Of a stretch of 32,000 bases of DNA, positions 609 to 16,608 are shown one piece after another (within the stretch, counting starts at the first letter, position 1; every line of letters begins with the position of its first letter). This DNA comes from Nostoc sp. PCC 7120 = FACHB-418 (lineage in GTDB: Bacteria; Cyanobacteriota; Cyanobacteriia; Cyanobacteriales; Nostocaceae): the NCBI RefSeq assembly GCF_000009705.1, contig NC_003272.1, positions 2,310,001 through 2,342,000 of the forward strand, in the 5' to 3' direction. Made by a program: the position numbers and the translations under genes. A model generated the notes under the pieces. That model saw only the letters and a list, made by a program, of their open reading frames with translations. It was not told where the DNA came from and ran no database searches.

Positions 609-3600
609 ATGCCATCAGGGTTTTCCCGGCAATATTTAGCGGAACAACTCACTCATATATTGGGTGAGTCTTTGTCAGAACGGGAGTTAGAAAAGTGCAT
701 CCAAGGTTTAGAAATTATTGAACCACCAATCGCCAAACAATTTTGGCAAGCGGCGACAGCATCGGCGGGGATTTATATTGTTCTTGGGGGTAAAGTCAGG
801 CTATTAGATGACGCTCACAACTTAATTACGACCGTTTCAACTGGTGCATCCTTTGGGGAATTGACTCTGTTTCCTGATGCAGACTTTATTCCTTATGTCG
901 CTAGAGCTTCGGTGAACTTGAAATTGGGTTATCTTCCCCAGACGATTTTACAAGATTTGATGGGCGAAAATTCCAGTGTTGGCGATCGCCTGAAAAAACA
1001 CGCCGAAACTTGGGATTTGTTGGTGTTGTGTTGTCAAAACTCTTTGTTGCCGCAAAATTCCTCAGTTGAGGAGATAATCAAAGCCTTAGCTTTATTTGAG
1101 CGACATAGTTTAGATATTGGTTCCCTACCATCACAGATATTTCCAGATACCAAGCTGTGGATATTGCGTCGCGGAGAATTGGAAAATAATAACGGACGCA
1201 CATTCCAACCCGGAACCATCTCCCAATATTCAAAGCAAATCAATTGGCAAGTCACACAATCAGCTATTGTGTATATTCTCAAGCAGGAGAATTGGCAAGT
1301 AGCACAGGAGTATTGGCCGGAGTTGGGGACTGGAGATTGGGGACTGGGGACTGGGGAAAACGCTTCTCAGTCGCCTTTACCTAGTCTTCGTTCTCCGGTT
1401 GTGAGGGAGCCGGAACCGCAGCCACAGCCAAAACAACGCCGAGCTTATTTCCCTAGTCCTCGTCTTCAGGTTGGTCATTGGTGGGGACGACTGATTAAGC
1501 GCTATCCCATATTTGAGCAACAAAGTGCGGCTGATTGTGGTGCGGCTTGTTTGGTGATGATTAGTCGCTATTGGGGTAAGCGTTTGAGTGTGAACCGACT
1601 GCGGGATTTAACTAACGTCAATCGCAGTGGTGCATCGTTGAAGGGTTTAACCGCCGCCGCCGAAACCATTGGTTTTACTACTCGTCCGGTAAAAGCTAGC
1701 TTTGATAAATTAGCACAACAACCCTTACCAGCGATCGCCCATTGGGAGGGTAAACACTATATTGTAGTTTATGAGATTAACAAAAAACAGGTAATTGTCG
1801 GTGATCCGGCGATCGGTCAACGTAACTTGAGTATTGCTGAATTTAAAGCGGGTTGGACTGGTTACGCCTTGTTGTTGCAACCGACAACCGAGCTGAAAGA
1901 AAACGAAGAAGCAAATACATCATTTTGGCAATTATTTGAGTTAGTCAAACCCCACACACGGGTATTAGTAGAGGTATTCAGCGCTTCGGTATTGATTCAG
2001 GTGTTTGGATTAATTACACCCCTATTTACCCAATTATTGTTAGATAGGGTGATTGTTCAAGGAAGCACCTTAACATTAAATGCAGTCGGTTTGGGGTTGA
2101 TGATATTTGGCTTATTTCGTGTGGTATTGAACGGACTACGGCAATATTTGTTAGACCACACAGCCAACCGTATCAGCATCTCGCTATTGGTAGGTTTTAT
2201 TAAACATACCTTCCGTTTACCCTTGTCGTTTTTTGAGTCGCGTTACGTCGGGGATATTGTTTCTCGCGTCCAAGAAAACCAAAAGATTCAACGCTTTTTA
2301 ACTGGGGAAGCATTGTCAATCATTTTAGATTTGTTGACAGTGTTTATCTATGTAGCTTTGATGTTTTGGTATAGTTCAGCAATGGCATTGATGAGTTTAG
2401 CGATTGTACCGCCTTTTATGTTATTGGCAATCATCGCTACACCCTTTTTACGCCGCATTAGTCGAGAGGTTTTTAGTGCTACAGCCAACGAAAATAGTTA
2501 TCTGATTCAATCCCTTTCTGGTATTCGCTCAATTCGCTCAATGGCAATCGAACAAACAGTACGTTGGCATTGGGAAGAACTGCTGAATAATGTCATCAGA
2601 AAAACCTTCAGTGGACAGATAATTAGTAACAAATTACAAATTTTTAGTTCTGCCTTAGAAACTCTGGTAACTACCAGCCTACTTTGGTTTGGGGCATGGT
2701 TGGTGATTCAAAACCAACTGACTATCGGGCAATTAGTCGCCTTTAATATGTTGTTAGGTAATATTATCCGTCCATTTCAAAGGCTGGTAGTTTTGTGGAA
2801 TCAATTACAAGAAGTGGTGATTTCTACAGAACGAATTAATGATGTTTTAGAGGCAGAACCAGAGGAAGATTTACAACACCAACATCGGCAATTTATCAGT
2901 AATTTACTTGGTCATATCCGCTTTGACAATGTAACATTTCGTTACCATCCAGAAAGCGATCGCAATATTTTAGAAAACCTCAGCTTTGAAATCAAGCCAG
3001 AGCAAACCGTGGCTGTAGTAGGGCGCAGTGGTTCCGGCAAAACCACTTTATTTAAACTGATTTTGGGTCTATACCCTCCGACAGATGGAAAAGTTCTCAT
3101 TGATGGCAAAGATGTAACTAATATAGCCCTGCGATCGCTCCGTTCACAAATCGGCGTTGTAGACCAAGATACATTTTTATTTGGCGGCACAATCCGCGAA
3201 AATATCAGCATTGCTCACCCAGAGGCTTCCTTAGAAGAAATTATTGCTGTCGCCCGTTTAGCAGGTGCGGACGACTTTATCAAACAAATGCCAGCAGGTT
3301 ATGAAACCCAAATTGGTGAAGGTGGGGGGATGTTGTCTGGCGGACAAAGACAACGTTTAGCGATCGCCCGTGCTTTGTTAGGAAACCCCCGCCTATTGTT
3401 GTTAGATGAAGCCACAAGCCATCTCGATTCCGAATCGGAACGCATTATTCAAAACAACCTCAAAACCATCCTCAAAGGGCGCACAAGTGTCATTATTGCT
3501 CACCGCCTTTCCACCGTGCGCCACGCAGACTTAATTCTGGTATTAGATCGCGGCTTATTAGTCGAAAGCGGTAATCACGATCAATTAATTGCCAGAAGAG

Positions 3601-3644
3601 GGCATTACTTTTACCTCAATCAACAGCAGTTGAGTAGTGAGTAA
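609..3644 (+). CDS. Peptidase-containing ABC transporter (PCAT): N-terminal cyclic-nucleotide-binding-like domain + C39 double-glycine peptidase + ABC exporter
   Basis: cNMP-like block GGKVRLL...GASFGELTLF. C39 catalytic Cys in QQSAADCGAACL, with later His (AIAHWEGKHYIVVYE) and Asp (VGDP). TM exporter core. Walker A GRSGSGKTT, signature LSGGQRQRLAIARAL, Walker B LLLLDEATS, H-loop IIAHRLS. GGAGG lies 7 nt upstream of the ATG. Confidence 0.92.
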   Translation: MPSGFSRQYLAEQLTHILGESLSERELEKCIQGLEIIEPPIAKQFWQAATASAGIYIVLGGKVRLLDDAHNLITTVSTGASFGELTLFPDADFIPYVARASVNLKLGYLPQTILQDLMGENSSVGDRLKKHAETWDLLVLCCQNSLLPQNSSVEEIIKALALFERHSLDIGSLPSQIFPDTKLWILRRGELENNNGRTFQPGTISQYSKQINWQVTQSAIVYILKQENWQVAQEYWPELGTGDWGLGTGENASQSPLPSLRSPVVREPEPQPQPKQRRAYFPSPRLQVGHWWGRLIKRYPIFEQQSAADCGAACLVMISRYWGKRLSVNRLRDLTNVNRSGASLKGLTAAAETIGFTTRPVKASFDKLAQQPLPAIAHWEGKHYIVVYEINKKQVIVGDPAIGQRNLSIAEFKAGWTGYALLLQPTTELKENEEANTSFWQLFELVKPHTRVLVEVFSASVLIQVFGLITPLFTQLLLDRVIVQGSTLTLNAVGLGLMIFGLFRVVLNGLRQYLLDHTANRISISLLVGFIKHTFRLPLSFFESRYVGDIVSRVQENQKIQRFLTGEALSIILDLLTVFIYVALMFWYSSAMALMSLAIVPPFMLLAIIATPFLRRISREVFSATANENSYLIQSLSGIRSIRSMAIEQTVRWHWEELLNNVIRKTFSGQIISNKLQIFSSALETLVTTSLLWFGAWLVIQNQLTIGQLVAFNMLLGNIIRPFQRLVVLWNQLQEVVISTERINDVLEAEPEEDLQHQHRQFISNLLGHIRFDNVTFRYHPESDRNILENLSFEIKPEQTVAVVGRSGSGKTTLFKLILGLYPPTDGKVLIDGKDVTNIALRSLRSQIGVVDQDTFLFGGTIRENISIAHPEASLEEIIAVARLAGADDFIKQMPAGYETQIGEGGGMLSGGQRQRLAIARALLGNPRLLLLDEATSHLDSESERIIQNNLKTILKGRTSVIIAHRLSTVRHADLILVLDRGLLVESGNHDQLIARRGHYFYLNQQQLSSE
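1324..1358 (+). repeat. Heptamer STRR (TGGGGAC-type, 5 units) embedded inside the exporter CDS
   Basis: tggggac tggagat tggggac tggggac tggggaa is read in frame as LGTGDWGLGTGE, in the linker between the cNMP-like and C39 domains. Confidence 0.85.
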
Positions 3645-3734: not shown

Positions 3735-5273
3735 ATGCCAAACCCATCTGTTAATTCATCATCTGTACTTGTGCAACCACAGACGGCTCAGGTGCAACGT
3801 GGTCATGATTTAGTTGATTATCAGACACAGGCACTGACGCAGACAAATGATTGGTTTTACGGCACAGAAGAACTACTAGATGCGTTACCGCAGCGCTGGA
3901 CGCGCTCGATGCTGTATTTGCTCATCAGCTTTACCATCATTGTTTTGCCTTGGGCAATGTTTACTAAGGTTGATGAAACGGGAAGTGCTAGAGGGCGTTT
4001 GGAACCCCAAGGCGCAACTCAAAAATTAGGTGTTGCTGTTACTAGTAGTGTCAAGGCTGTCAATGTGGCAGAAGGGGCGACTGTCAAGGCGGGACAAGTG
4101 CTATTGGAATTAGAGTCTGATGTGTTGCAATCCCAGGTGGAACAAGCACAGACAAGGTTAGAAGAACTCATCAATCGCCAAGGACAGCAAGAGCTACTAA
4201 AAAACCAATTGATGTTAACAATTAACATCCAACAGCAGCAAAACCAAGCCCAAGAATTAGAGAAAATGGCGCAAGTGCATCAGGCGCAGCAAAACCTGGA
4301 TGCTAGGCAGAGTACATATAATTTACAGAAGTTAGAAAAATTAGCGCTAGTTGAACAGGCTAGACAGGATATCAATACTAGTCAACTAGGAAGAAAATTA
4401 GCCAATAGCCGTTTGCAAAGAGATATTAAAGAAGTTTTACGTTATCGCCGACTTTTGAGACAAGGTGCGATCGCTCAAATTAAAGTAGTAGAACTAGAAA
4501 AGATAGCGGAAGACAGTCAACGTTCCCTATTGCAAGCCAACTCTGATTTTACTCAAGCCCAGCTACGCTTACAAGAAAAAGAAAGCCATTATCAAACCAC
4601 CGTCAGCCAAACCTTAGCTGACATTGAACAAGCAAAACTCCGCCTCCAAGAACAGCAAAGCAGCTATCAAAGTCTTGTGCAGACAGGTAAGTTAGCACTG
4701 TTAAGGAGTCAGGAACAACTCAAAGACTTACAAAACCAACTAACTACCCTACAATCAGAAATCATCCAAACCAAGAGCCAGATTAACGCCTTCAAGATTC
4801 AGATTCAGCAACGAGTAGTGCGATCGCCTGTTGATGGTACGATTTTTGATCTACCAATCGATAAACCAGGCCCTGTAGTCGAAGCTGGACAGATAGTTGC
4901 TCAAATTGCGCCTAAGAATGCGGCAATCATTCTCAGAAGTTCCATGCCTAGTCAACACAGTGGTTTCTTGAGAGTGGGAATGCCAGTAAAAATTAAATTT
5001 GATGCCTATCCTTTCCAAGATTATGGAGTATTACCAGGACGTGTTAGCTGGATTTCTCCTGACTCGAAAATTCAAACTACTAGCCAAGGCAACGTAGAAG
5101 TTTATGAAATGGATATTACTTTAGATCATCCCTATATTCAAGCTGGGAATAAACGTATTACCTTAACCCCTGGACAATCAGCCACCGCCGAAGTTATTAT
5201 CCGCCAGCGTCGAGTCATTGACTTTATTTTAGACCCCTTCAAAAAGCTGCAAAAAGGTGGTTTAGAGCTTTAG
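3735..5273 (+). CDS. HlyD-family membrane fusion / secretion adaptor protein
   Basis: N-terminal membrane anchor (MLYLLISFTIIVLPWAMF), a long Gln-rich coiled coil, and a C-terminal barrel pattern (VRSPVDGTI...GMPVKIKFDAYPF...GRVSWISPD). It lies 90 nt downstream of the ABC exporter on the same strand. Confidence 0.88.
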   Translation: MPNPSVNSSSVLVQPQTAQVQRGHDLVDYQTQALTQTNDWFYGTEELLDALPQRWTRSMLYLLISFTIIVLPWAMFTKVDETGSARGRLEPQGATQKLGVAVTSSVKAVNVAEGATVKAGQVLLELESDVLQSQVEQAQTRLEELINRQGQQELLKNQLMLTINIQQQQNQAQELEKMAQVHQAQQNLDARQSTYNLQKLEKLALVEQARQDINTSQLGRKLANSRLQRDIKEVLRYRRLLRQGAIAQIKVVELEKIAEDSQRSLLQANSDFTQAQLRLQEKESHYQTTVSQTLADIEQAKLRLQEQQSSYQSLVQTGKLALLRSQEQLKDLQNQLTTLQSEIIQTKSQINAFKIQIQQRVVRSPVDGTIFDLPIDKPGPVVEAGQIVAQIAPKNAAIILRSSMPSQHSGFLRVGMPVKIKFDAYPFQDYGVLPGRVSWISPDSKIQTTSQGNVEVYEMDITLDHPYIQAGNKRITLTPGQSATAEVIIRQRRVIDFILDPFKKLQKGGLEL

Positions 5274-5532: not shown

Positions 5533-6381
5533 ATGATAATAAAAGAATGCCTGATTGCCTCGAAAACTAATTATTTTAAGCTAATAGGTGGAGCAAATAT
5601 CAATATGGAAAAGTTTTTAAAACTCTCTGTTGAGGACATTATCACTCATCTTAAAGTCTCTTTTCAAATGCCTAGTATACTAGAAGCAATCGCTACCCAG
5701 AAAATCATTGCTGATACTGCTGAAAAAGTAGGTATTGAATTAAGTGTAGAAGAACTACAACAATCTGCCGATAGTATGCGTTTTGCTAACCGCTTGCTAA
5801 AGGCAGATGATACTTGGAATTGGCTACAAAAACACTATCTAACTATCGATGATTTTGAGGAAGTAGCCAAATCAAACTTATTACATATGAAATTGGCTGA
5901 ACATTTATTTGCTGACAAAGTTGAACCTTTTTTTTATGCTCATAAAATTGATTACACTGGAGCTGCAACCTATGAAGTAATTCTAGATGATGAAGACTTA
6001 GCCTTAGAGTTATTTTATGCTTTGCAAGAAGGTGAAATTAGTTTCCAAGAAATCGCTCGTCAATATATTCAAAGTCCCGAAACTCGCCGGGCTGGAGGTT
6101 ATCAAGGGATTCGCTATCGCTCGGAGTTTCGCCCAGAAATAGCCGCAGCCGTCTTTGCTGCTACACCTCCCCAGCTTCTCAAACCAATAATTACACCCAA
6201 AGGTGTGCATATAATTGCAGTGGAGGAAATCATTACACCAGAATTAGATGAATCACGCCGGGTTCAAATACTTAAAGATTTCTTTACCCATTGGTTACAA
6301 CAACAAATCACTAATTTAGAAATTGTCGCTGAACTTTCTCAAAATGATAATTCTTCTTCCGAATTGCCTAGACCAGCCTAA
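5533..6381 (+). CDS. Parvulin (PpiC)-type peptidyl-prolyl isomerase with SurA-like N-terminal domain, no signal peptide
   Basis: C-terminal block GGYQGIRYRSEFRPEIAAAVFAATPPQLLKPIITPKGVHIIAVEE resembles a rotamase (PpiC) domain. The start is uncertain: ATG 5605 (MEKFLKLSVEDI) has GGTGGAG 11 nt upstream, whereas ATG 5533 has GAGG only 2 nt upstream. Confidence 0.7.
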   Translation: MIIKECLIASKTNYFKLIGGANINMEKFLKLSVEDIITHLKVSFQMPSILEAIATQKIIADTAEKVGIELSVEELQQSADSMRFANRLLKADDTWNWLQKHYLTIDDFEEVAKSNLLHMKLAEHLFADKVEPFFYAHKIDYTGAATYEVILDDEDLALELFYALQEGEISFQEIARQYIQSPETRRAGGYQGIRYRSEFRPEIAAAVFAATPPQLLKPIITPKGVHIIAVEEIITPELDESRRVQILKDFFTHWLQQQITNLEIVAELSQNDNSSSELPRPA

Positions 6382-6535: not shown

Positions 6536-6817
6536 TTAATCTAATTCCATCATCTTTATTTTAATAGCTACAAATTTTGCACCTATATGCTGAAGTTTAC
6601 GAGTTTTAATTGTATCTGGCATACTATTATTTTTGAGTAGGCGAATATATGTACGATATGGTATATATGTAAGAGGATTATATCCAGCAGTATGGAGCAT
6701 TAAAACACAAGCCCAAGAATACTTACCGACAGATATAGCTTGGAGAATAGCCTCCCATTCTTCAGTGAGAATTGTACAGTTACAAAGTTGATGATGCTGG
6801 AAAGATTCTTGAGTCAT
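6536..6817 (-). CDS. HetP-family (heterocyst commitment) protein homolog
   Basis: The central block [36 protein letters not shown] matches the conserved core I recall from Anabaena HetP and its short paralogs. At 93 aa, the size fits the HetP-like paralogs. Confidence 0.7.
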
Positions 6818-6966: not shown

Positions 6967-8049
6967 CTACAAAGGTGTATAGATATCTTCAGAATAAGCA
7001 TTGAGGTAGGGACGCTGCAATTCGATGTTGAGTGAAGAGAAGTGTTGTAAAATTGCAGTCATTCTACCTGCTGGCGTATCATTACCTTGTTGCCAAGCTT
7101 CCAGCAAACCATTAGCAATTATTTGACAACGGTGTGTACCAAAGCTTTCCTGTTCGGCAAATCTATGGTTTGGTTCTTCGGCGATCGCTAACCCTGGTGC
7201 GATAAGCTTAGTAAATAGGGGTACTTGTGCCTGAAAATGCGTTTGATTTTCTGCATATATCGTCTTCAGAACAGGGTAAACCTTTTCATAGTCATTTTTA
7301 TCAAAATACAGTACTGCCGAGTCATGGCGAACATAATCAGAGGGGTTGTATAGTGCTTTAAATGTGAAAGCAATCGGTATAGCGTTGAGGTGTGTAGTCA
7401 AAGCATCCATGACTGCAACTGCACCATCTGGAGTTAAGTTGAAATAAACACGTACCAAAGTTTGATATTGTTGCGCTGCACCTGCATTAGCCACCGCCAT
7501 ATAAAATCCGTTTTGGACGAGATTTTTTGGCAATTGGATAGCAGCAGAGTTACCCATCATCTGAGTTCGCAAACCATCCGGCGGAACGTGGAGAGTTAAA
7601 CCATCCCGATGGACTGCCAAAGTCCCATCTGATTCTTCCCTGAGAACTTGCCAACCATAACTCCAGTAGCCAGTACCTTTATTATGTTCATGCAGGCGAT
7701 CGTAAAAAGCTAGGTCTACACCTAAAAATGTGTTGTTTTCTAGATTTTTATTGACGGCTAAATTAGATATCTCTGCATCAGAGGCCAGAACACTTTTCAA
7801 CGAGCCATTGTAATAGATGCCGTAGAGAAAACTACGCAGTTGCTGACTCAAATACTTATTCTGTAAATCCAAAGATAATTTTTGAAACCGAGAGACTGAA
7901 GACTCAGGTAATTCTAAGGGTTTATAGTTGGGATGCTTAATACAATACTGAGACTGTATTTCGATATTATGAATCATGTCTTGCAATGATATCTGCAATA
8001 ACTCTGGAATATCTGACAATTGTACAGATAGAGAATCTAATATTTGCAT
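6967..8049 (-). CDS. HopA1-like protein (candidate phospho-Ser/Thr lyase partner of the adjacent kinase)
   Basis: A 360-aa soluble protein immediately downstream of the APH-type kinase. The C-terminal pattern VRVYFNL...FTFKALYNPSDYVRHDSAVLYFDKNDY fits my recollection of the T3SS-effector HopA1 family. The assignment is recall- and context-based and was not HMM-verified. Confidence 0.5.
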   Translation of the reverse strand: MQILDSLSVQLSDIPELLQISLQDMIHNIEIQSQYCIKHPNYKPLELPESSVSRFQKLSLDLQNKYLSQQLRSFLYGIYYNGSLKSVLASDAEISNLAVNKNLENNTFLGVDLAFYDRLHEHNKGTGYWSYGWQVLREESDGTLAVHRDGLTLHVPPDGLRTQMMGNSAAIQLPKNLVQNGFYMAVANAGAAQQYQTLVRVYFNLTPDGAVAVMDALTTHLNAIPIAFTFKALYNPSDYVRHDSAVLYFDKNDYEKVYPVLKTIYAENQTHFQAQVPLFTKLIAPGLAIAEEPNHRFAEQESFGTHRCQIIANGLLEAWQQGNDTPAGRMTAILQHFSSLNIELQRPYLNAYSEDIYTPL

Positions 8050-8078
8050 AGAGGTTTGTTAGTAAATGATATGAGTAG

Positions 8079-8119
8079 GATATGAAGGGATGAGGAAGAT
8101 GAAGGAGATGAGGCGGATG
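8079..8119. repeat. Nonamer tandem repeat (GATGARGNN, ~4.5 units) in the kinase-HopA1 spacer
   Basis: gatatgaag g gatgaggaa gatgaagga gatgaggcg gatg was read directly between the kinase stop (8176) and the HopA1-like start (8049). Confidence 0.7.
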
Positions 8120-8175
8120 TCACTTTAGCTTTCCCATCTCCCTCTACCGCCCACTCCCCACGCCTGATTCCCTAA

Positions 8176-9348
8176 TTAAACCTGAGACAAACTTACAGGA
8201 GAGAGGTCTGATAACTGGACACCAAAAATTGTTTGCACTGATGCTTCTGGACGACACAGCAAACTTTTGGCGACTTGTAGCATACAAATACCCACATTAC
8301 CGAAGGTTTTTTCGTACTGGAGTTGAGCCTGAATAGCAGTAACGAGTGCTAAACCGCAAAATTGCATGACTCGTTGTAGGAAGTCGGGATGATGTTCTAA
8401 GATTTCTGGGAAATGAGTAAGATAAGCCGTCACCAACTCTCTTATTGAAGGTTGGAGAACGTACAAAGGGGTGGCAGCTAAACGTAACGACTCCTCAATG
8501 GCAATTGATTTACCAGTTACCAAGCTGTATAACCAAATTTGCAAGTAGCTGGCAATGAGTGTTCCTAAATCGTTAGCAGGGTCTCCCCAGTTACCACGTT
8601 CCCAGTCAATGAAGCGCACCATATTTTCATCACTCATATCTTCCCAATTGAGGGAGACGAGGATATTGTTTAACTTCAGGTCATTATGGGTAAGACAGCA
8701 GGGAGTAAAACTGTTGATTAATTGTGCGATCGCCTGTCCCAAACTATCGTAAAGTTGATATAGGGCAAAAAATCTCAGACCATCAGCAGGAACCTTACCA
8801 AATATCTCTGGAGTTAGTCTATCTAATCCTCGATTTAGATGAGGTGTTCTTGGGTTAGATTTACTCTCACCAGGATTTTGAAAGAAATCTCGATATTCTT
8901 CACAGTTAAATGAGGTGCGATGAATCAACGCCAAAGTAGTCCCGACTGCATTAGCAAGCTGGGTGGGAAATAAATTTAAATTCTCTTTAATGTAAAAATC
9001 CATCAAATCTTGATAGTTATCAAGATAGTTGAAAATGATAATAGAATTTTCCCAATTAAAGTATATCGCTTCTGATAAATAGGAACGTATGTGGTTAATT
9101 TCTGGAAATCTGCTAACAAAATCATGAATGCGCCATTCCAGAACAAACTCACCAGTCGTCTTTCCTTCTAAGTTATGACGTTCTTGTTTAACTAGTAGTT
9201 TTCTTTCTTCTGGGAAAGTAATTAATAAATTAAAATTCTTTGCTGGTTTCAGTTCAACTTTACTCGACGCTCCTTCCTCAAGAGTACACAAGTTTAAAGA
9301 AATTAAGTAATCACATACATTTTGAGAGTTGAGGATAAATGGTGGCAT
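8176..9348 (-). CDS. Aminoglycoside-phosphotransferase (APH)/choline-kinase-fold kinase
   Basis: Catalytic loop LTHNDLKLNNILV (HxDxxxxN), metal-binding FIDWERGNWGDPANDLG, and a candidate beta3 lysine in LLVKQE. Confidence 0.8.
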   Translation of the reverse strand: MPPFILNSQNVCDYLISLNLCTLEEGASSKVELKPAKNFNLLITFPEERKLLVKQERHNLEGKTTGEFVLEWRIHDFVSRFPEINHIRSYLSEAIYFNWENSIIIFNYLDNYQDLMDFYIKENLNLFPTQLANAVGTTLALIHRTSFNCEEYRDFFQNPGESKSNPRTPHLNRGLDRLTPEIFGKVPADGLRFFALYQLYDSLGQAIAQLINSFTPCCLTHNDLKLNNILVSLNWEDMSDENMVRFIDWERGNWGDPANDLGTLIASYLQIWLYSLVTGKSIAIEESLRLAATPLYVLQPSIRELVTAYLTHFPEILEHHPDFLQRVMQFCGLALVTAIQAQLQYEKTFGNVGICMLQVAKSLLCRPEASVQTIFGVQLSDLSPVSLSQV

Positions 9349-9490
9349 ATATTTAAGATGAGTTACAACATTTATATCTAAATATTTGTAGGGTTGGTTT
9401 CGCCCAACGCACTTGATCTAAGGCTACAAGTCTTTAAGTCTGCAATGGCTTTCCTCTGTATATTTCAAAAATCTAATACTAGCTCTATAT

Positions 9491-9712
9491 CTATTTATGA
9501 CTATTGCCAATATATGAATTAACTATTTTTAGGATGGTAGCAATAGCAAATGATATTGTGATAAATCGAAATATTTTTTCTGCTAAGATAAATATTTGAT
9601 TATATGAATACTGATTACCGCCGTATATTAATCCAGATTCTTCATAATTTAGGTCGGTTAGAAAATTTTCTGAATCATGAGAATGTAATTCAGAAACAAT
9701 TATTTTCGCCAT
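9491..9712 (-). CDS. Divergent double-glycine-leader precursor peptide (P6), hydrophobic Cys-free core
   Basis: From the internal Met: MAKIIVSELHSHDSENFLTDLNYEESGLIYGG | NQYSYNQIFILAEKIFRFITISFAIATILKIVNSYIGNSHK. The leader layout parallels the five upstream copies (I.V.EL...SE.FL.DLN...GG, then N.YS.N). It is very AT-rich and has no obvious SD. Confidence 0.5.
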   Translation of the reverse strand: MAKIIVSELHSHDSENFLTDLNYEESGLIYGGNQYSYNQIFILAEKIFRFITISFAIATILKIVNSYIGNSHK

Positions 9713-9843
9713 TTTAGAAAAATGCAAAAATTTGACATTGATTAAATACACTCTATATTAGATAATTTTATTGGTTTAAGAAAAAACCAAAAAATAGTTT
9801 ACTTTTACTCACAGAAAAAGACTGTAATTTGATGGAATTTATA

Positions 9844-9873
9844 AGCGATTAAACATGATATTGCTTAATCGCT
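9844..9873 (-). promoter_or_regulatory. Conserved hairpin AGCGATTAA-N12-TTAATCGCT upstream of P6
   Basis: A 9-bp perfect inverted repeat from the same sequence family as the hairpins preceding P1-P5. Confidence 0.6.
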
Positions 9874-9910
9874 GATGCCATAATCTTAACAGAATTATTG
9901 ATTTGAGTTT

Positions 9911-10144
9911 TTATGCAGCAGAACTGAAAGAACGAGCCAAGTGTCCAATGGCATCGATACCATAGGTAATGACACCAAACTCAAATCCCTTCACGGCTAA
10001 GTCTAAAACTCCATTTGTGGTATTGGAATAATTACCACCATGAACAGAATTATCAAGATTGTTTAATTCGTTGAGGAAGCTTTCAGAATCTTGGAATAAT
10101 TCTGTACCAGTAGCTTGTAATTCATTAACAGCAATAAACGCCAT
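9911..10144 (-). CDS. Double-glycine-leader precursor peptide P5 (core ...HLARSFSSAA)
   Basis: Leader MAFIAVNELQATGTELFQDSESFLNELNNLDNSVHGG, then a 40-aa Cys-free core. AGGAG lies 6 nt upstream of the ATG. It differs from its paralogs almost only at synonymous sites. Confidence 0.8.
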   Translation of the reverse strand: MAFIAVNELQATGTELFQDSESFLNELNNLDNSVHGGNYSNTTNGVLDLAVKGFEFGVITYGIDAIGHLARSFSSAA

Positions 10145-10187
10145 GATGGACTCCTAAAACTATTTTGGTTTTGAGTAGAAAGTGCAG

Positions 10188-10215
10188 GCGATTAAGAAAT
10201 ACAAAACTTAATCGC
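10188..10215 (-). promoter_or_regulatory. Conserved intercistronic hairpin GCGATTAAG-N10-CTTAATCGC, 43 nt upstream of the P5 start
   Basis: A perfect 9-bp stem. Identical stems occur at 10531-10558, 10874-10901 and 11251-11278. No T-tract follows on the - strand. Confidence 0.7.
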
Positions 10216-10253
10216 TCATGCCACAATTGCAAGAAATCCGTTTATCTTAGTAT

Positions 10254-10487
10254 TTACGCAGCAGAACTGAAGGACTTAGCTAGGTGTCCAATAGCATCAA
10301 TACCATAAGTGATAACACCAAACTCAAATCCTTTCACGGCTAAGTCTAAAACTCCATTTGTGGTATTGGAATAATTACCACCATGAACAGAATTATCAAG
10401 ATTGTTTAATTCGTTGAGGAAGCTTTCAGAATCTTGGAACAATTCTGCACCAGTAGCTGGTAATTCATTAACAGCAATAAACGCCAT
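10254..10487 (-). CDS. Double-glycine-leader precursor peptide P4 (leader variants Q10P, T14A)
   Basis: A 343-bp-shifted copy of 10597-10830 with 3 nt differences. It has the same RBS and the same core NYSNTTNGVLDLAVKGFEFGVITYGIDAIGHLAKSFSSAA. Confidence 0.8.
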   Translation of the reverse strand: MAFIAVNELPATGAELFQDSESFLNELNNLDNSVHGGNYSNTTNGVLDLAVKGFEFGVITYGIDAIGHLAKSFSSAA

Positions 10488-10530
10488 GATGGACTCCTAA
10501 AACTATTTTGGTTTTGAGTAGAAAGTGCAG

Positions 10531-10558
10531 GCGATTAAGAATTGCAAAACTTAATCGC
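10531..10558 (-). promoter_or_regulatory. Conserved intercistronic hairpin upstream of P4
   Basis: GCGATTAAG-aattgcaaaa-CTTAATCGC. Confidence 0.7.
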
Positions 10559-10596
10559 TCATGCCACAATTGCAAGAAATCCGTTTATCTTAGTAT

Positions 10597-10830
10597 TTAC
10601 GCAGCAGAACTGAAGGACTTAGCTAGGTGTCCAATAGCATCAATACCATAAGTGATAACACCAAACTCAAATCCTTTCACGGCTAAGTCTAAAACTCCAT
10701 TTGTGGTATTGGAATAATTACCACCATGAACAGAATTATCAAGATTGTTTAATTCGTTGAGGAAGCTTTCAGAATCTTGGAATAATTCTGTACCAGTAGC
10801 TTGTAATTCATTAACAGCAATAAACGCCAT
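10597..10830 (-). CDS. Double-glycine-leader precursor peptide P3
   Basis: Same architecture as P4/P5, with AGGAG 6 nt upstream of the ATG. Confidence 0.8.
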   Translation of the reverse strand: MAFIAVNELQATGTELFQDSESFLNELNNLDNSVHGGNYSNTTNGVLDLAVKGFEFGVITYGIDAIGHLAKSFSSAA

Positions 10831-10873
10831 GATGGACTCCTAAAACTATTTTGGTTTTGAGTAGGAAGTGCAG

Positions 10874-10901
10874 GCGATTAAGAATTGCAAAACTTAATCG
10901 C
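10874..10901 (-). promoter_or_regulatory. Conserved intercistronic hairpin upstream of P3
   Basis: GCGATTAAG-aattgcaaaa-CTTAATCGC. Confidence 0.7.
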
Positions 10902-10961
10902 TCATGCCACAATTGCAACAGAGCTATTTTGCTCAGTTTTCACACAGTCAGTAATGAAAAT

Positions 10962-11207
10962 TTAGTAATAACCGTTACCAGCATCACTGTAGGACTTAGC
11001 TAGGTGTCCAATGGCATCGATACCATAGGTGATGACACCAAACTCAAATCCTTTTTCAGCCAAGTCTAAAACTCCATTGGTAGTTTTAGAATAATTACCA
11101 CCATGAACAGAATTATCAAGATTGTTCAATTCGTTGAGGAAGCTTTCAGAATCTTGGAATAATTCTGTACCAGTAGCTTGTAATTCATTAACAGCAATAA
11201 ACGCCAT
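10962..11207 (-). CDS. Double-glycine-leader precursor peptide P2 (core variant N4K, V13E, C-terminus SYSDAGNGYY)
   Basis: Same leader as P3-P5 with a core carrying an alternative C-terminal tail, and the same RBS. Confidence 0.8.
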   Translation of the reverse strand: MAFIAVNELQATGTELFQDSESFLNELNNLDNSVHGGNYSKTTNGVLDLAEKGFEFGVITYGIDAIGHLAKSYSDAGNGYY

Positions 11208-11250
11208 GATGGACTCCTAAAACTATTTTGGTTTTGAGTAGGAAGTGCAG

Positions 11251-11278
11251 GCGATTAAGAATTGCAAAACTTAATCGC
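11251..11278 (-). promoter_or_regulatory. Conserved intercistronic hairpin upstream of P2
   Basis: GCGATTAAG-aattgcaaaa-CTTAATCGC. Confidence 0.7.
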
Positions 11279-11338
11279 TCATGCCACGATTGCAACAGAG
11301 CTATTTTGCTCAGTTTTTACACAGTCAGTAATGGAAAT

Positions 11339-11590
11339 TTAGTAATAACCGTTACCAGCGTCACTGTAGGACTTAGCTAGGTGTCCAATGGCATCGATAC
11401 CATAGGTGATAACACCAAACTCAAATCCCTTCACAGCTAAGTCTAAAACTCCATTTGTGGTATTGGAATAGTTATAGCCACCACCATGAACAGAATTGTC
11501 AAGATTATTCAACTCGTTGAGGAAGCTTTCAGAATCTTGGAATAATTCTGCACCAGTAGCTTGTAATTCTTTAACAGCAATAAACGCCAT
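11339..11590 (-). CDS. Double-glycine-leader precursor peptide P1 (core begins GYNYSNTT, C-terminus SYSDAGNGYY)
   Basis: The start is taken at the MAFIAV Met (ATG 11590-11588), as in the paralogs, rather than the track's upstream Met at 11608. Confidence 0.78.
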   Translation of the reverse strand: MAFIAVKELQATGAELFQDSESFLNELNNLDNSVHGGGYNYSNTTNGVLDLAVKGFEFGVITYGIDAIGHLAKSYSDAGNGYY

Positions 11591-12163: not shown

Positions 12164-12421
12164 TCATGAATTAATACCAAGCTGTTGTCGCAGGTCTTGA
12201 ATTTGTAATTCTAGTGAATCCATCCATCGATCAAGAGTTCCATTAGTATCATTCAATGTGGGTGGTGTTGACTCTTCTGACGGTTCAGCAACTCGATTTC
12301 TTCTACCGCCATATCTTCTTTCCAAGCCTGCATACACAGACTTCAGTTCCCAAGTAGTGAGGTCTTTCAATGATTTTCCTTCATCATCGGGGGAAAGATC
12401 AGAAATTGTTATTCTTACCAT
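12164..12421 (-). CDS. Small hydrophilic protein with double-glycine-type leader-like N-terminus
   Basis: MVRITISDLSPDDEGKSLKDLTTWELKSVYAG resembles the cyanobacterial ISDL...L.DLT..EL..V.GG leader layout (AG instead of GG). AAGAGG lies 8 nt upstream of the ATG, and the gene has its own terminator. It has no Cys and a charged C-terminal part. Confidence 0.55.
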   Translation of the reverse strand: MVRITISDLSPDDEGKSLKDLTTWELKSVYAGLERRYGGRRNRVAEPSEESTPPTLNDTNGTLDRWMDSLELQIQDLRQQLGINS

Positions 12422-12702: not shown

Positions 12703-14241
12703 TTAATTCTGCGCTTGTTGTGGTGGACTAGGAATTGTCACATCAATTGGTGTGACTTGAGCAGCTAATTGAGTTAACGGTGGTTGAATAGCGGTTTGAT
12801 TACCCACCACCAGAGTTACAAGATTATCTGGTTTGAGGTATTGCTTGGCTACCCGTTGCACATCAGCTATGGTGGTGGCGGCTACGGCTTTTTGATAGCG
12901 GAAGAGAAAATCAGCCGGATAGCCGTAATATTCATAGCGCATCAATCGGGATAGGGTTTGGCTGGGGTCTTGGAAGTTGAATACAAAAGAATTGAGAGTA
13001 GACTCTTTAGCACGGGCTAATTCTTCTGCTGTTACTGGTTGGGCTTGGATGCGTTTTATTTCCGCTTGTAAGGCTTTGACGAACTGCACAGTCGCATCGG
13101 AACGGGTTTGTCCACCAGCCATGAACATCCCAGGATAGTCAAAGCGGGGACTCCAGTAACCATATACAGAATAGGCTAAACCTTGACGCGATCGCACTTC
13201 ATTAAATAAACGTCCCCCAAAACCATTTAACACCCCATTCAATACATCCAATGCTGCATAGTCGGGGTTATCGAATTTACCCCCCAAATGCCCAACTAAA
13301 ATACTACTTTGGGTAAGTTGGGGCTGATTGACGAAAAACACACCACCTGTATTTGCTGGGGAGACTTTTGGTAAAGTTGGTTTAGTAAATTGTGGGTTAC
13401 GCGCCCAGTTACCCAACTTAGCTTGAATGAGCGATCGCATTTTTTTAGCATCAAAATCTCCCACAATGCCCAAAATCATATTATTGGGGTGGAAATACTT
13501 TTGGTGGAACTGTACCAAATCTTCACGAGCGATCGCGTTAATAGTGGCATACTCTGTAATACGACCATAGGGACTATCCTTGCCATAAATCAGCTTGCGA
13601 AATTCCCTAGAAGCAATACCATCAGGATCATCATTGCGGCGAGCGATACCACCTTTAGCTTGAGTTTTCGCCAAATCTAGTTTAGCTTGAGCAAACACTG
13701 GCGATCGCAACACCTCAGCAAATAGCCCAAATACTGTTTCCACATCTTCACTCAGCGCCTCAAAACTAGCGCTACCCGCCGCCTCACCAATATTCACTTC
13801 TACAGATGCGGCACGTTGTTCTAATATTTGATTCAAATCATCAGGTGAATGCTGCTTAGTTCCACCAGTCCGCATCACGCCACCGGTAAAGCTAGCCAAT
13901 CCCACTTTATCTGCTGGTTCCCAACGACTCCCAGTCCTGACTAGTGCGGTACCACCAATTAAAGGTAGTTCCCTATCCTCCATGAGATAGACAACCAAGC
14001 CATTCTGCAACACAAACCGTTCGTACTTGGGTAACTTCACCTCCGGTAAGGGCGCAAACTGCAACTCTGTGTAGTGTTTGGCTGCTGCTGTCGCCGTCAG
14101 CGAAAAGTTAAAAGTTACAGCTAAAAAGGCAAAAATAGCCACCAATGCCACAATAAACCTTTTGCCTTTTGCCATTTTGAATTTTAGATTTCTAATTTTG
14201 AATTGTTTACGCCTGTGCATATCTGTTGCTGCTTTCCTCAT
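12703..14241 (-). CDS. M16-family peptidase, non-catalytic-type subunit (no HxxEH motif), secreted
   Basis: It has pitrilysin-fold length and pattern. The position equivalent to the zinc motif reads GLASFTGGVM. There is a signal-anchor FIVALVAIFAFLAVTFNFSLTATAAA. An alternative start is ATG 14175 (MAKGKRF). Confidence 0.8.
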   Translation of the reverse strand: MRKAATDMHRRKQFKIRNLKFKMAKGKRFIVALVAIFAFLAVTFNFSLTATAAAKHYTELQFAPLPEVKLPKYERFVLQNGLVVYLMEDRELPLIGGTALVRTGSRWEPADKVGLASFTGGVMRTGGTKQHSPDDLNQILEQRAASVEVNIGEAAGSASFEALSEDVETVFGLFAEVLRSPVFAQAKLDLAKTQAKGGIARRNDDPDGIASREFRKLIYGKDSPYGRITEYATINAIAREDLVQFHQKYFHPNNMILGIVGDFDAKKMRSLIQAKLGNWARNPQFTKPTLPKVSPANTGGVFFVNQPQLTQSSILVGHLGGKFDNPDYAALDVLNGVLNGFGGRLFNEVRSRQGLAYSVYGYWSPRFDYPGMFMAGGQTRSDATVQFVKALQAEIKRIQAQPVTAEELARAKESTLNSFVFNFQDPSQTLSRLMRYEYYGYPADFLFRYQKAVAATTIADVQRVAKQYLKPDNLVTLVVGNQTAIQPPLTQLAAQVTPIDVTIPSPPQQAQN

Positions 14242-14257: not shown

Positions 14258-15853
14258 TCATGCTTTTTTCGATAACAACTTGCCAATTGTGCGATTTTCC
14301 GGCGTAAACGTTGCTTTTGCCACTCGCTGAATATCCGCAGGAGTCACAGCCACAATGTCATCTAATTGTTTAAACAAATTGCGCCAAGAACCTGTTTTTA
14401 CCTCATATTCCAGAAGTTGCTGCGCCATACCCATATTGGAATCGAGGCTGCGTAATAAACCAGCTCTGGCTTGAGTTTTTACCCGTTCTAATTCCACCGC
14501 AGATACAGGTTCAGTTTTCAACTTGTCAATTTCTTTACTTAAAGCCAGCGCTACCTCATCAACTGTATGATTAGGAGCCGTGAGAGCATAGAACAGCATC
14601 AAGTTGGGGTATTTATCACCAGGAAAACCACTAAAACCTTGAGCGTTTAATGCTACACGTTCTTTTTCCACTAAAGACTTATATAGTCTTGATGTGCGTC
14701 CACTACTTAACAAGCTGGCAATAATATCATACGCCGCATTATCTGGATGAGTCATTGCGGGACGATGATAACCTTCTAAATACCAAGGTTGAGAAGCGAG
14801 TTCTAAAGTAACTTCTCGTGTTTGTGTTTGTTTGGGTTCTGTGGCAATTTTTGACTGTGGCTTAGGTGCTGCTTTGTAGCGTCCAAAGTAAGTTTGCGCC
14901 AAGCGTTTGACTTGAGCTACTTCCACATCTCCGACAACAGCAATAGTCAAATTACTGGGTACGTAATAAGTGTTAAAAAACGTCTGTACATCTTCTGGCG
15001 TTAAGTTACGAATATCTTGGTCGTAACCAATCACCGGTCGTCTGTAAGGATGAACTTTATAAGCAGCATCAATGAACCTCTCCACCATCATCCCAATAGG
15101 TGAATTTTCCACCCGCATCCGCCGCTCTTCTAAAATCACATCTTTTTCTTTATAAAACTCCCGGCGAATTACAGGATCAAGAAATCGATCAGACTCCAAT
15201 GACATCCACAGTTCTAACTTATTGGACGGGAAACTGTAGAAATAACGTGTCGCTTCCGTTGAGGTATTGGCGTTTAAACCTACACCCCCAGATTGTTCGA
15301 CAATTTGCCCCAGTTCATTTTGTTTGACTAATTTGCCAGCTTGTGATTCTACTTCCTTGAAAGTCGCTTGCAACCTCACAACATCATCTTGCTTACCATT
15401 GGCTTTCGCTGCTCGAATTTGTGTGTCTAACTGCTCCAAGCGCTCAAGTAAGGGTTTTTCAGCCTGATAATTTTCTGTACCAATGCGTGTAGTGCCTTTG
15501 AACGCCAAATGCTCAAGAAAGTGAGCGACACCAGTTTTACCATCTGGTTCATCCACACCTCCAACATCCGCGTAGGTGAGAAAGGAAACTACTGGTGCTT
15601 GATGGCGTTCTAAGACAATAAACTTCATGCCATTATCCAGCCGGAACTCCGTCAAATCTTTAATTACCCGGTCTAGATAGGGTTGAATTGAAGTAGGAAC
15701 TTTTGCAGTTGGTGTTTTGCTTGGTTGGAGAGCAATTGGCGTTTGTGCTAATGCTATTTCTGGTGTCCATCCCCACCATAGAACGACTGTTGCCATCAAG
15801 ATTGCCAACAGCCGACGCGATATTGAACGACTAAGTTGATTCATAAGCAACAA
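14258..15853 (-). CDS. M16-family zinc peptidase, catalytic-type subunit
   Basis: Inverted zinc motif HFLEHLAFKG (HxxEH) and an N-terminal signal peptide (LLAILMATVVLWWGWTPEIALAQ). Its stop lies 16 nt upstream of the partner gene. Confidence 0.88.
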   Translation of the reverse strand: MLLMNQLSRSISRRLLAILMATVVLWWGWTPEIALAQTPIALQPSKTPTAKVPTSIQPYLDRVIKDLTEFRLDNGMKFIVLERHQAPVVSFLTYADVGGVDEPDGKTGVAHFLEHLAFKGTTRIGTENYQAEKPLLERLEQLDTQIRAAKANGKQDDVVRLQATFKEVESQAGKLVKQNELGQIVEQSGGVGLNANTSTEATRYFYSFPSNKLELWMSLESDRFLDPVIRREFYKEKDVILEERRMRVENSPIGMMVERFIDAAYKVHPYRRPVIGYDQDIRNLTPEDVQTFFNTYYVPSNLTIAVVGDVEVAQVKRLAQTYFGRYKAAPKPQSKIATEPKQTQTREVTLELASQPWYLEGYHRPAMTHPDNAAYDIIASLLSSGRTSRLYKSLVEKERVALNAQGFSGFPGDKYPNLMLFYALTAPNHTVDEVALALSKEIDKLKTEPVSAVELERVKTQARAGLLRSLDSNMGMAQQLLEYEVKTGSWRNLFKQLDDIVAVTPADIQRVAKATFTPENRTIGKLLSKKA

Positions 15854-15994: not shown

Positions 15995-16608
15995 ATGCGA
16001 GTTTTTAATTCTCCCCCGCCTTCAGAGGCACAGACACGCACCAAAATTTTACAGGCAGCGCTAAAGTTATTTGCCTCCCAAGGCTTTGATGGCACTACCA
16101 CCCGCGATTTAGCACAAGCCGCAGGTGTAGCCGAAGGTACTTTGTTTAGGCATTTCCCTAACAAAAAAGCGATTTTGGTAGAAGTAGCAACTGCTGGCTG
16201 GGTGGACATTCTCACAGATTTGCTCACAGAGTTGAGCGAAATGGGTAGCTATAAAGCAGTCGCTCAGGTGATGCGTCGCCGGATGTGGAATTTGCAAAAA
16301 ACGCCGACTTAATGCGGGTTTGCTTCATGGAAGTGCAGTTTCACCCAGACTTGCGCGATCGCATTCAAGAAGAAGTCATTGGTAAAATGACCGATGTCGC
16401 CGAAGCCTTCTTCCAAACCGCAATGGATAAAGGCATTTACCGCAAAACAGATGCCAATCTAGTAGCCAAAGTATTCCTGGGAATGTTTGCGATCGCTGGC
16501 TTCTCTAACAATACTCTCATGCAGCCAGACGCTTCCCCCCAAGAAATGCAGCAAATGGCAGAAGGCCTAGCTGATATCTTCCTCAATGGGGTACTAGCAA
16601 AAGATTAG
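15995..16608 (+). pseudogene. TetR/AcrR-family transcriptional regulator split by a frameshift
   Basis: An N-terminal TetR HTH (TKILQAALKLFASQGFDGTTTRDLAQAAGVAEGTLFRHFPNKKAI) sits in one frame and ends at 16312. The C-terminal ligand-domain-like part sits in another frame from 16285. Removing 2 nt at the tgtg of 16284-16287 would fuse them as ...RRRM-EFAKNADL... Confidence 0.7.

Follow-up and report, generated by a model that had tools for sequence, protein, structure and literature searches.

In the filamentous cyanobacterium Nostoc/Anabaena sp. PCC 7120, the region from alr1927 to asl1938 is a real gene cluster, in which an APH-fold kinase (All1932) and a HopA1-like protein (All1931) are encoded next to seven small Cys-free peptides with double-glycine (GG) leaders and a divergently transcribed C39-peptidase ABC exporter with its HlyD-family partner. 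The window, meaning the whole stretch of 32,000 nucleotides analyzed here, corresponds to BA000019 positions 2,310,001–2,342,000, and a window coordinate plus 2,310,000 gives the BA000019 coordinate; exact sequence matches tie its proteins to the accessions BAB73629–BAB73637 of this strain. The cluster is read as a system for leader-guided dehydration of Ser/Thr without thioether formation, followed by C39-ABC/HlyD export; on the grounds of homology, fold, catalytic residues, genomic linkage, and core composition, a probability of about 0.62 is given to this reading. The initial annotation of this DNA had proposed an undescribed family of RiPPs, peptides that are made on the ribosome and modified after translation. 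This part of the proposal has to be withdrawn: the locus was catalogued as a genome-mining prediction in 2011 and again in 2021, and is a listed member both of the “group II” bacteriocin clusters (Wang, Fewer, and Sivonen, 2011, PLoS One, PMC3140520) and of the cyanobacterial “Family 1A” HopA1/phosphotransferase RiPP-like clusters (Eyles, Vior, Lacret, and Truman, 2021, Chem Sci, PMC8153245). What is new here is modest, namely the K-S-[F/Y]-S motif at the end of the cores, linkage statistics in both directions, the tracking of the pair by the leader, the Ser-rich and Cys-poor composition of the cores, and an aldo/keto-reductase-like (AKR-like) gene, translationally coupled, in sister clades.

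The pair and the peptides are encoded as follows (ORF, open reading frame; aa, amino acids).

6967–8049, minus strand: HopA1-family, LanY-type phospho-Ser/Thr lyase homolog, 360 aa (BAB73630.1; all1931 by accession order)
8176–9348, minus strand: APH-fold, LanK-type peptide kinase homolog, 390 aa (BAB73631.1; all1932 by accession order)
9491–9712, minus strand: type B precursor, single and divergent, 73 aa, “CDS10” of Wang et al. (2011) (inner ATG; the mechanical ORF extends to 9751; ORF list)
9911–10144, minus strand: type A precursor copy 1, asl1933, 77 aa (leader ELFQDSESFLNEL...HGG; core end RSFSSAA)
10254–10487, minus strand: type A precursor copy 2, asl1934, 77 aa (ORF list, DNA repeat, Wang table)
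10597–10830, minus strand: type A precursor copy 3, asl1935, 77 aa (ORF list, DNA repeat, Wang table)
10962–11207, minus strand: type A precursor copy 4, asl1936, 81 aa, with the tail KSYSDAGNGYY (ORF list, DNA repeat, Wang table)
11339–11590, minus strand: type A precursor copy 5, asl1937, 83 aa (BAB73636.1; exact sequence in dataset 2 of Eyles et al., 2021)
12164–12421, minus strand: type C peptide, asl1938, 85 aa (retrieved by a jackhmmer search started with the leaders of types A and B; group II precursor in Wang et al., 2011)

In the ORF list, every element of the earlier description is found on the minus strand where it had been placed. The kinase motifs HNDLKLNN and IDWERGNWGDP are present in the product of 8176–9348, 7 Ser/Thr are indeed counted in the 40-aa core, and none of the six precursors then known has a Cys. 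That inventory was correct for the six precursors and the pair but left out the seventh peptide (12164–12421), the divergent export set, and the published descriptions.

The Kinase and Lyase Homologs

The assignment of the 360-aa protein to the HopA1 family is confirmed by a match to Pfam PF17914 (HopA1) with E = 2.6e-62, which covers the entire 170-position model. Its only significant sequence match in the PDB is LxmY (9dk1_B, E = 2.8e-8), and this match improves to E = 2.7e-10 when a 32-sequence profile is used; chain B of the entries 9DK1–3 is LxmY, which is the lyase in LxmKY, the dehydratase complex for lexapeptide (PMC12141560). LxmY is likewise the best Foldseek match of the AlphaFold2 model (E = 2.3e-16, TMt 0.69), with Pseudomonas HopA1 next in rank and, after it, SpvC/OspF and the lyase domains found in class III lanthipeptide synthetases. 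R200, K231, R241, and Y248 are unchanged in 32 cyanobacterial homologs. The spacing of the latter three (+10/+17) is that of K219/R229/Y236 in CaoY, and R200 aligns with the Arg of LxmY and corresponds to R187 of CaoY; mutagenesis revealed that these CaoY residues are needed for phosphate elimination (PMC9486802). An equivalent of CaoY His57 is not assignable: H39 and H120 are both invariant, and the N-terminal regions do not align by sequence.

The kinase gene lies 126 bp upstream of the HopA1 gene on the same strand. Its product matches PF01636 (APH; E = 6e-9), in agreement with the fold proposed earlier, and also the NCBIfam LxmK model NF038156 (E = 1.1e-20, 74 bits, positions 20–345 of 347). 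In the fold search, the top match of its AlphaFold2 model (pLDDT 82) is LxmK (9dk3_A, E = 1.3e-13, TMt 0.76), and residues K54, E71, H221, D223, K225, N228, and D248 are invariant among the homologs. Sequence profile, fold, and catalytic residues thus make it very probable that the two proteins constitute a divergent but intact LanK/LanY-type module. A role of the pair in defence was also considered and was dropped, because PADLOC gave no defence-system match for it.

Linkage of the Pair and the Peptides

From the enzyme side, 37 genome loci, all from Nostocales, were retrieved through HopA1. The kinase gene is directly upstream of HopA1 in all of them, and in 35 the peptides lie upstream of the pair in a fixed order: one type C, one to seven tandem type A, and then usually one type B. 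In the two more distant loci (L031 and L032), peptides with unrelated hydrophobic cores are encoded downstream of the pair. This arrangement of HopA1, kinase, and precursors, kept in 35/37 Nostocales loci that were themselves collected via HopA1, is far beyond chance. From the peptide side, a metagenome scan with the leader words [EQ]LFQDSES only gave 53 loci, approximately 37 of which have enough flanking DNA to be judged, and both kinase and HopA1 are encoded in ~33 of these. In another (L042), the contig stops after the kinase. The orphan loci are four (L063, L068, L070, and L079), with one or two type A genes and neither kinase nor HopA1 in the surrounding 10 kb; since a complete locus is present elsewhere in each of their assemblies, it is possible that the orphan precursors are modified in trans. 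The linkage therefore holds in both directions, and a separate life of pair and precursors, which the initial annotation had named as fatal to its idea, is not what these loci display. In a census of 91 sequences (the window and 90 fetched loci), the kinase is counted 73 times, HopA1 71, the PpiC-like protein 53, HlyD 45, C39-ABC 44, and M16 peptidases 40. Judging from these comparisons of sequences, the pair probably acts on the peptides of the window.

The association might also be nothing but conserved Nostocales synteny, with no coupling among kinase/HopA1, peptides, M16, and HetP-like genes. The restriction of all 37 genome loci to Nostocales would fit this, and unrelated neighbors (TetR, DUF4332, and PhzF-like genes) are also syntenic in many of them. 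However, the trio of kinase, HopA1, and leader persists in divergent loci that have other cores, downstream precursors, or an added AKR-like gene and no M16, TetR, or HetP, and Family 1A spans 183 clusters across Cyanobacteria (PMC8153245). Synteny without coupling is thus very improbable.

Leaders and Cores of the Precursors

The leader of the precursors is about 37 aa long, as judged from the ORFs and their conservation. Its segment ELFQDSESFLNEL, ELFQDSESFLN[ED][LM], is invariant in the 137 type A peptides of the main clade. The type B gene is found 18–197 bp upstream of the kinase gene in 30 of the 36 main-clade loci; the consensus of its leader is DSE.F...L....[YF]GG, and the hydrophobic segment of its core ends in S[FY]. 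In other kinase/HopA1 loci, the same leader stands before unrelated cores: alternating (I/V/L)-Thr repeats in L074, GNTVNANT-type repeats in L076, L078, L080, L087, and L089, and Ser/Val/Thr-rich strings in L081 and L083. Therefore, the leader motif tracks the enzyme pair and not the core that it carries.

The cores contain an amphipathic hydrophobic segment with GxxxG, and those of type A, variable otherwise, are closed by K-S-[F/Y]-S in 130 of 137 cases (95%). The remaining seven have R, I, or T at the first position of the motif, or small changes, and S-x-S is kept in nearly all. Behind the motif is a tail of 2–16 residues, rich in Tyr/Gly/Ser/Asp, which varies even among the copies of one array. 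In a set of 245 unique cores (10,303 residues), Ser accounts for 12.4% vs. 6.7% in the background and Cys for 0.1% vs. 0.7%; Cys occurs in only 6 of the cores, while every one of them has at least one Ser/Thr (median 7 per 42 residues). All seven peptides of the window (types A, B, and C) are free of Cys, and Cys is found in 2 of the 137 related type A cores. Such a combination of leader and cargo is the one that would be expected of a leader-guided, substrate-tolerant Ser/Thr-modifying enzyme not feeding thioether formation.

There are rare type A variants with a C-terminal ...NSTCG tail after K-S-F-S (L007, 378–620; L009, 7375–7635; L044, 9453–9809). These tails are the only recurrent Cys among the main-clade type A cores, and no decarboxylase is evident in L009. 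Homology of the leaders to those of class V lanthipeptides is not claimed: the spacing of the aromatic and E-L positions is F..6..F/Y..4..L here vs. F..3..Y..6..L there (F-20, Y-17, E-12, and L-11 in CaoA). In the networking of Eyles et al. (2021; PMC8153245), class V leaders and the present peptides were both placed in network 1.

The peptides may instead be exported unmodified, as class-II-bacteriocin-like or EbfG-like matrix peptides, and the pair may act on a HetP-like or other cellular target or in immunity or regulation. A GG leader with C39-ABC and HlyD is a self-sufficient export route, the core segment is hydrophobic and amphipathic with GxxxG, and the Gly/Tyr-rich tails resemble those of matrix or adhesive peptides. 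A precedent is known in Synechococcus elongatus PCC 7942: EbfG1–4, small GG-motif peptides encoded in tandem and exported by a C39-ABC/HlyD system with PteB, work unmodified as components of the biofilm matrix, and Alr1927 shares 31.9% identity with PteB (PMC12267927). Moreover, seven loci (L002, L003, L018, L019, L028, L030, and L034) hold the pair and the precursors with no transporter within 10 kb, and the two modules are thus separable. On the other hand, the invariance of ELFQDSESFLNEL over 137 peptides far exceeds what C39 processing needs and predicts the pair in ~33 of ~37 loci, the same leader goes with the pair onto unrelated cores, and the catalytic residues of both enzymes are invariant. 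Of the features of unmodified class II bacteriocins, the GG leader, the dedicated C39-ABC exporter, and the accessory protein are present; a PF10439-type profile match is not, and no Pfam or NCBIfam family, including Bacteriocin_IIc (PF10439), matches the window peptides. The precedent also differs in that no kinase/HopA1 pair is described for EbfG/PteB and asl1933–1937 are not singled out as EbfG homologs, and among four PteB homologs Alr1927 is the weakest (PMC12267927). Unmodified export is accordingly regarded as unlikely.

Relation to Catalogued Clusters and Known Systems

Table S3 of Wang et al. (2011) lists CDS10, asl1933–asl1937, and asl1938 as group II precursors, and asl1930 as well; the coordinates given for CDS10 (BA000019 2319491–2319712) and asl1938 (2322164–2322421) correspond one to one to those of the window (PMC3140520). 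The defining features of group II are HlyD, a C39-ABC of the long type, a rotamase similar to SurA, additional modification genes, and nearby HetP-like and M16 genes (PMC3140520). In the window, HlyD, the long C39-ABC, the SurA-like rotamase, the listed precursors, and the HetP-like and M16 genes are all found. The words kinase and phosphotransferase do not occur in the main text of that study (PMC3140520).

Eyles et al. (2021) found HopA1 beside a phosphotransferase in 96% of 1,340 proteins, and the 183 clusters of their Family 1A, exclusive to Cyanobacteria, comprise 570 double-glycine-leader peptides (PMC8153245). The exact 83-aa and 73-aa peptides of the window are given in dataset 2 under WP_010996095 (Nostoc sp. 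PCC 7120), in network 1, and dataset 1 scores the locus as positive for HopA1, phosphotransferase, PPIase, peptidase, and transporter and negative for LanC and HFCD (PMC8153245). The HopA1 domain, the adjacent phosphotransferase, and several non-identical GG-leader peptides (seven, of three types) are likewise seen here, and no difference from Family 1A exists at the level of the locus; what stands out is K-S-[F/Y]-S, nearly invariant within the Nostocales sub-family analyzed. Cyanobacterial candidate precursors associated with LanK/LanY were also mentioned by Liang et al. (2022), chosen for containing Cys (PMC9486802). For all1931, all1932, asl1933–1938, and alr1927–1929, the literature searched contained no functional study of the pair, only catalogue mentions and work on Asl1930, and no main text in it has both “HopA1” and “Nostoc.”

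The closest characterized relatives are LxmK/LxmY (lexapeptide; PDB 9DK1–3) and CaoK/CaoY (cacaoidin), which also consist of a split APH-fold kinase and a HopA1-like lyase with leader-bearing substrates. They dehydrate leader-bearing peptides in vitro (PMC9486802 for CaoK/CaoY; PMC12141560 for LxmK/LxmY). The Lxm proteins are the top fold matches, and the Lys/Arg/Tyr/Arg residues of the lyase and the catalytic residues of the kinase are conserved in the window pair, whereas its identity to these proteins is only ~16–22% and its score is below the NCBIfam equivalog cut-off. Of the features of class V lanthipeptides (lanthidins), the locus has the LanK-type kinase and the LanY-type lyase with catalytic Lys/Arg/Tyr; core Cys for (methyl)lanthionine or AviCys, and LanX and/or LanD, are missing. 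Further differences are the lack of LanJ reductase and methyltransferase, the double glycine in which the leader ends, predicted to be cut by a C39-ABC exporter, the multiple tandem precursors, and the Gram-negative phototrophic host.

A pair of the same type, TvaC/TvaD (TsaC/TsaD), carries out Ser/Thr dehydration in thioamitide biosynthesis (PMC8153245). Unlike thioamitide clusters, the window has no YcaO/TfuA pair, no HFCD decarboxylase, and no precursor Cys, C-terminal or other, to support thioamide or AviCys chemistry. Domain scans of the 32-kb window found no LanC, flavoprotein decarboxylase, YcaO/TfuA, second (LanX-like) APH protein, reductase, methyltransferase, or other tailoring enzyme, and the earlier statement that neither a cyclase nor a decarboxylase gene is visible is thereby upheld. 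By analogy, what the locus does would correspond to the dehydration stage in the biosynthesis of class V lanthipeptides and thioamitides. The locus is neither a lanthipeptide nor a thioamitide cluster, because Cys, LanX, LanD, YcaO, and TfuA are all absent.

The prochlorosin system offers another parallel. There, ProcM, a fused class II LanM with a cyclase domain, serves many ProcA precursors with Cys-containing cores. One modifying enzyme, a conserved leader, many hypervariable cores, a double-glycine site, and a C39-ABC exporter are common features; the window enzyme differs from ProcM in being split and unrelated in sequence, and its cores in being Cys-free.

Proposed Pathway

The precursors are translated with the ~37-aa leader. 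All1932 and All1931 would then form a complex and bind this leader, as CaoKY and LxmKY do. The kinase would recognize ELFQDSESFLNEL and phosphorylate Ser/Thr of the core with ATP, and the lyase would eliminate the phosphate to leave dehydroalanine (Dha) or dehydrobutyrine (Dhb), as homology and the intact catalytic residues of both suggest. The near-invariant Ser within K-S-[F/Y]-S is the prime candidate for modification, with the Ser/Thr of the N-terminal NYSNTT as secondary candidates. No lanthionine is formed, since the cores lack Cys and a cyclase is absent from the locus. Judging from their families, Alr1927 and HlyD would cleave after Gly-Gly and export the peptide; the PpiC-like protein and, perhaps, a signal-anchored M16 pair may act afterwards, which is speculative. 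The dehydro residue may stay in the product, react with Lys or His, serve in shedding the variable tail, or undergo reduction. For the product, the balance tilts slightly toward one that carries dehydro residues or derives from them. The fully specified version, in which All1932/All1931 convert the Ser of K-S-[F/Y]-S, and possibly other Ser/Thr, to dehydro residues in Cys-free peptides and so represent a class-V-type dehydratase uncoupled from lanthionine formation, is put forward tentatively, with the odds somewhat against it.

The pair may modify the peptides and the end product may still be something other than a plain linear dehydropeptide. First, the Dha of K-S-[F/Y]-S could possibly be captured by a group that is not a thiol, from Lys (giving lysinoalanine), His, or Tyr. 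Duramycin and cinnamycin contain lysinoalanine, and C-terminal amides derived from Dha are found in thiopeptides. Lys precedes the candidate Ser in 95% of type A peptides, as such a capture would call for, but Arg, Ile, or Thr takes its place in 6 of the 137 copies, and type B often lacks it. Second, hydrolysis of the Dha enamide could possibly remove the C-terminal tail and leave a C-terminal amide; the sequence after the motif is short (2–16 aa), hypervariable, and of low complexity, as a discarded follower peptide would look. Neither a DurN-like cross-linking enzyme nor an amidase for these two variants is recognizable in the window. Third, phosphoserine could persist as the final modification. 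In CaoA, elimination was slowed by a Lys adjoining the target Ser (PMC9486802), which would favor persistence of the phosphate; the intact catalytic residues of the lyase argue against it, and this variant is disfavored. Products of these kinds are, taken as a whole, rather unlikely.

Several points weigh against leader-guided dehydration as read here. On the side of the enzymes, the 74 bits of the kinase are far from the LxmK equivalog cut-off of 315, methylthioribose (MTR) kinases are almost equal fold matches to its model, and PDB searches with the kinase, as a single sequence or a 32-sequence profile, do not reach LxmK, so that the link to LxmK is drawn from the NCBIfam model, the fold search, and gene adjacency. 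The AlphaFold2 model of the HopA1-like protein is of moderate confidence (pLDDT 69), and the gaps of 126–149 bp between the genes mean that there is no translational coupling. On the side of the substrates, the cores of Family 1A as a whole are variable, without conserved Ser/Thr/Cys (PMC8153245), and the conservation of K-S-[F/Y]-S could serve target binding or protease recognition instead of modification. A Lys beside the target Ser impaired phosphate elimination in the CaoA variant E-1K (PMC9486802). Expression of asl1933 was reported to be absent after nitrogen step-down (PMC4365693), where its reads may have been discarded owing to the 96%-identical tandem copies. Finally, no experimental study of any cyanobacterial member or product was found in the literature searched, which misses most subscription journals.

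LanK/LanY-type dehydratases are understood so far only where they feed Cys-dependent cross-links, i.e., in class V lanthipeptides and thioamitides. When clusters are counted as in Eyles et al. (2021; PMC8153245), Cyanobacteria hold the largest group of such enzyme pairs, with no characterized product in the literature searched. If the proposed dehydration is true, the first characterized product of this family of ~180 clusters would be a linear dehydropeptide, a peptide with a Lys-Dha (lysinoalanine-type) cross-link, or a tail-shedding peptide. The analysis yields three predictions: the leader recognition motif, the target Ser in K-S-[F/Y]-S, and a Cys-free outcome. Since PCC 7120 is the standard genetic model for filamentous cyanobacteria, the question is directly answerable. 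Because the sub-family is restricted to heterocyst-forming cyanobacteria and adjoins Asl1930, a regulator of heterocyst commitment, the peptides might have a role in the biology of the filament or colony and not be antibiotics.

Organization of the Precursor Array

The tandem precursor genes are embedded in DNA repeats, one with a 343-bp unit in 3 copies (96% matches) and one with a 377-bp unit in 2.7 copies (92%). The spacers between the precursor genes contain imperfect inverted repeats, GCGATTAAGAATTG/CAAAACTTAATCGC, at 10531–10558, 10874–10901, and 11251–11278, and a related one, ATAAGCGATTAAACA/TGCTTAATCGCTGAT, is located at 9841–9876 in the spacer between type A and type B. These could form inter-cistronic RNA hairpins; none of them is accompanied by a T-run. 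A terminator-like hairpin follows asl1938 on its 3′ side (12131–12092), and a hairpin is also found after the M16 gene. Rfam gave no match in the whole window, and promoter- and terminator-like sites in the window are no more frequent than in shuffled sequence.

In the type C peptide, asl1938, a related leader with YAG at its end precedes an Arg-rich stretch, ERRYGGRRNR (in relatives RRRRR), after which come Ser/Thr and a helical tail with the pattern W..L..Q..DLR.QL. At least 28 related loci have one such copy upstream of their type A array.

Export Genes and Other Neighbors

The export set and the neighbors are the following.

609–3644, plus strand: C39-peptidase ABC exporter Alr1927, predicted leader-cleaving transporter (PF03412, E = 5.6e-42; ABC_membrane; ABC_tran; TIGR01193, E = 5e-152)
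3735–5273, plus strand: HlyD-family membrane fusion protein (TIGR01843, E = 9.7e-63, above cut-off)
5533–6381, plus strand: PpiC/SurA-like rotamase, putative maturation or folding helper (PF00639, E = 2.7e-10; TIGR04500 “peptide maturation system,” E = 2.6e-19, below cut-off)
6536–6817, minus strand: HetP-like Asl1930 (BAB73629; UniProt H1930_NOSS1; NF037966, E = 9e-30)
12703–14241 and 14258–15853, minus strand: two M16 peptidase homologs (PF05193/PF00675; present in 40 related loci)

The C39-ABC, HlyD, and PpiC-like genes are transcribed divergently from the kinase/HopA1 pair, and PpiC-like is the commonest accessory gene, with 53 related loci. Alr1927 has an N-terminal extension of ~300 aa, which corresponds to the “long type” transporter of Wang et al. 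(2011); residues 52–120 give a weak match to a cyclic-nucleotide-binding domain (E = 7.8e-6, 26.2 bits vs. a cut-off of 27.5). The asl1930 gene is co-oriented with the HopA1 gene and lies 149 bp downstream of it, and this adjacency to HopA1 is seen in ~25 related loci. Asl1930 has been reported as a negative regulator of heterocyst commitment (PMC9045159), and its membership in the peptide system is uncertain.

The M16 pair may process the peptides or may be merely syntenic; it is a possible part of the cluster, limited by synteny like the TetR, DUF4332, and PhzF-like neighbors. The first M16 homolog (12703–14241) has an N-terminal basic stretch and a hydrophobic segment (…KGKRFIVALVAIFAFLAVTFNFSLTATAAA) that resemble a signal peptide or membrane anchor. 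If it is one, the M16 pair would act outside the cytoplasm. The TetR, DUF4332, and PhzF-like genes were rejected as parts of the cluster, since divergent loci lack them and their conservation is inseparable from the synteny of Nostocales. The TetR-family regulator of the window is split by a frameshift near 16300 into ORFs 15995–16312 and 16285–16608 (plus strand), while a single ORF of ~204 aa is found in 35 related loci; the split gene may be a pseudogene or a sequencing error of the reference. Other genes of the window encode an amino-acid/urea-type ABC importer, Ffh, a KH protein, PhoH, a haem-utilization protein, and a TIR protein. The last is a 363-aa protein (30203–31294, minus strand) with an N-terminal TIR domain (PF13676, E = 6.8e-11) and no PADLOC match, and is unrelated to the peptide cluster.

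In sister loci whose cores are Thr/Ser/Asn-rich repeats (L031, L074, L076, L080, L081, L083, L086, L087, and L089), an AKR-like gene (~346 aa; PF00248, E = 1.3e-8) is located directly downstream of HopA1, and in most of them it overlaps or abuts the HopA1 stop codon, i.e., is translationally coupled. Its product could be a new type of Dha/Dhb reductase, analogous to LanJ. Dataset 1 of Eyles et al. (2021) already carries an AKR column (PMC8153245).

Upstream of the ABC exporter, 52–426 (plus strand) encodes a homeodomain-like/winged-helix protein (HTH_32, with a weak match of the IS630-transposase type). The copy in the window is N-terminally short and lies beside the window edge. In 30 related loci, a homolog of 199–245 aa stands at this position, and a regulator that has been conserved is therefore suggested, not a transposase.

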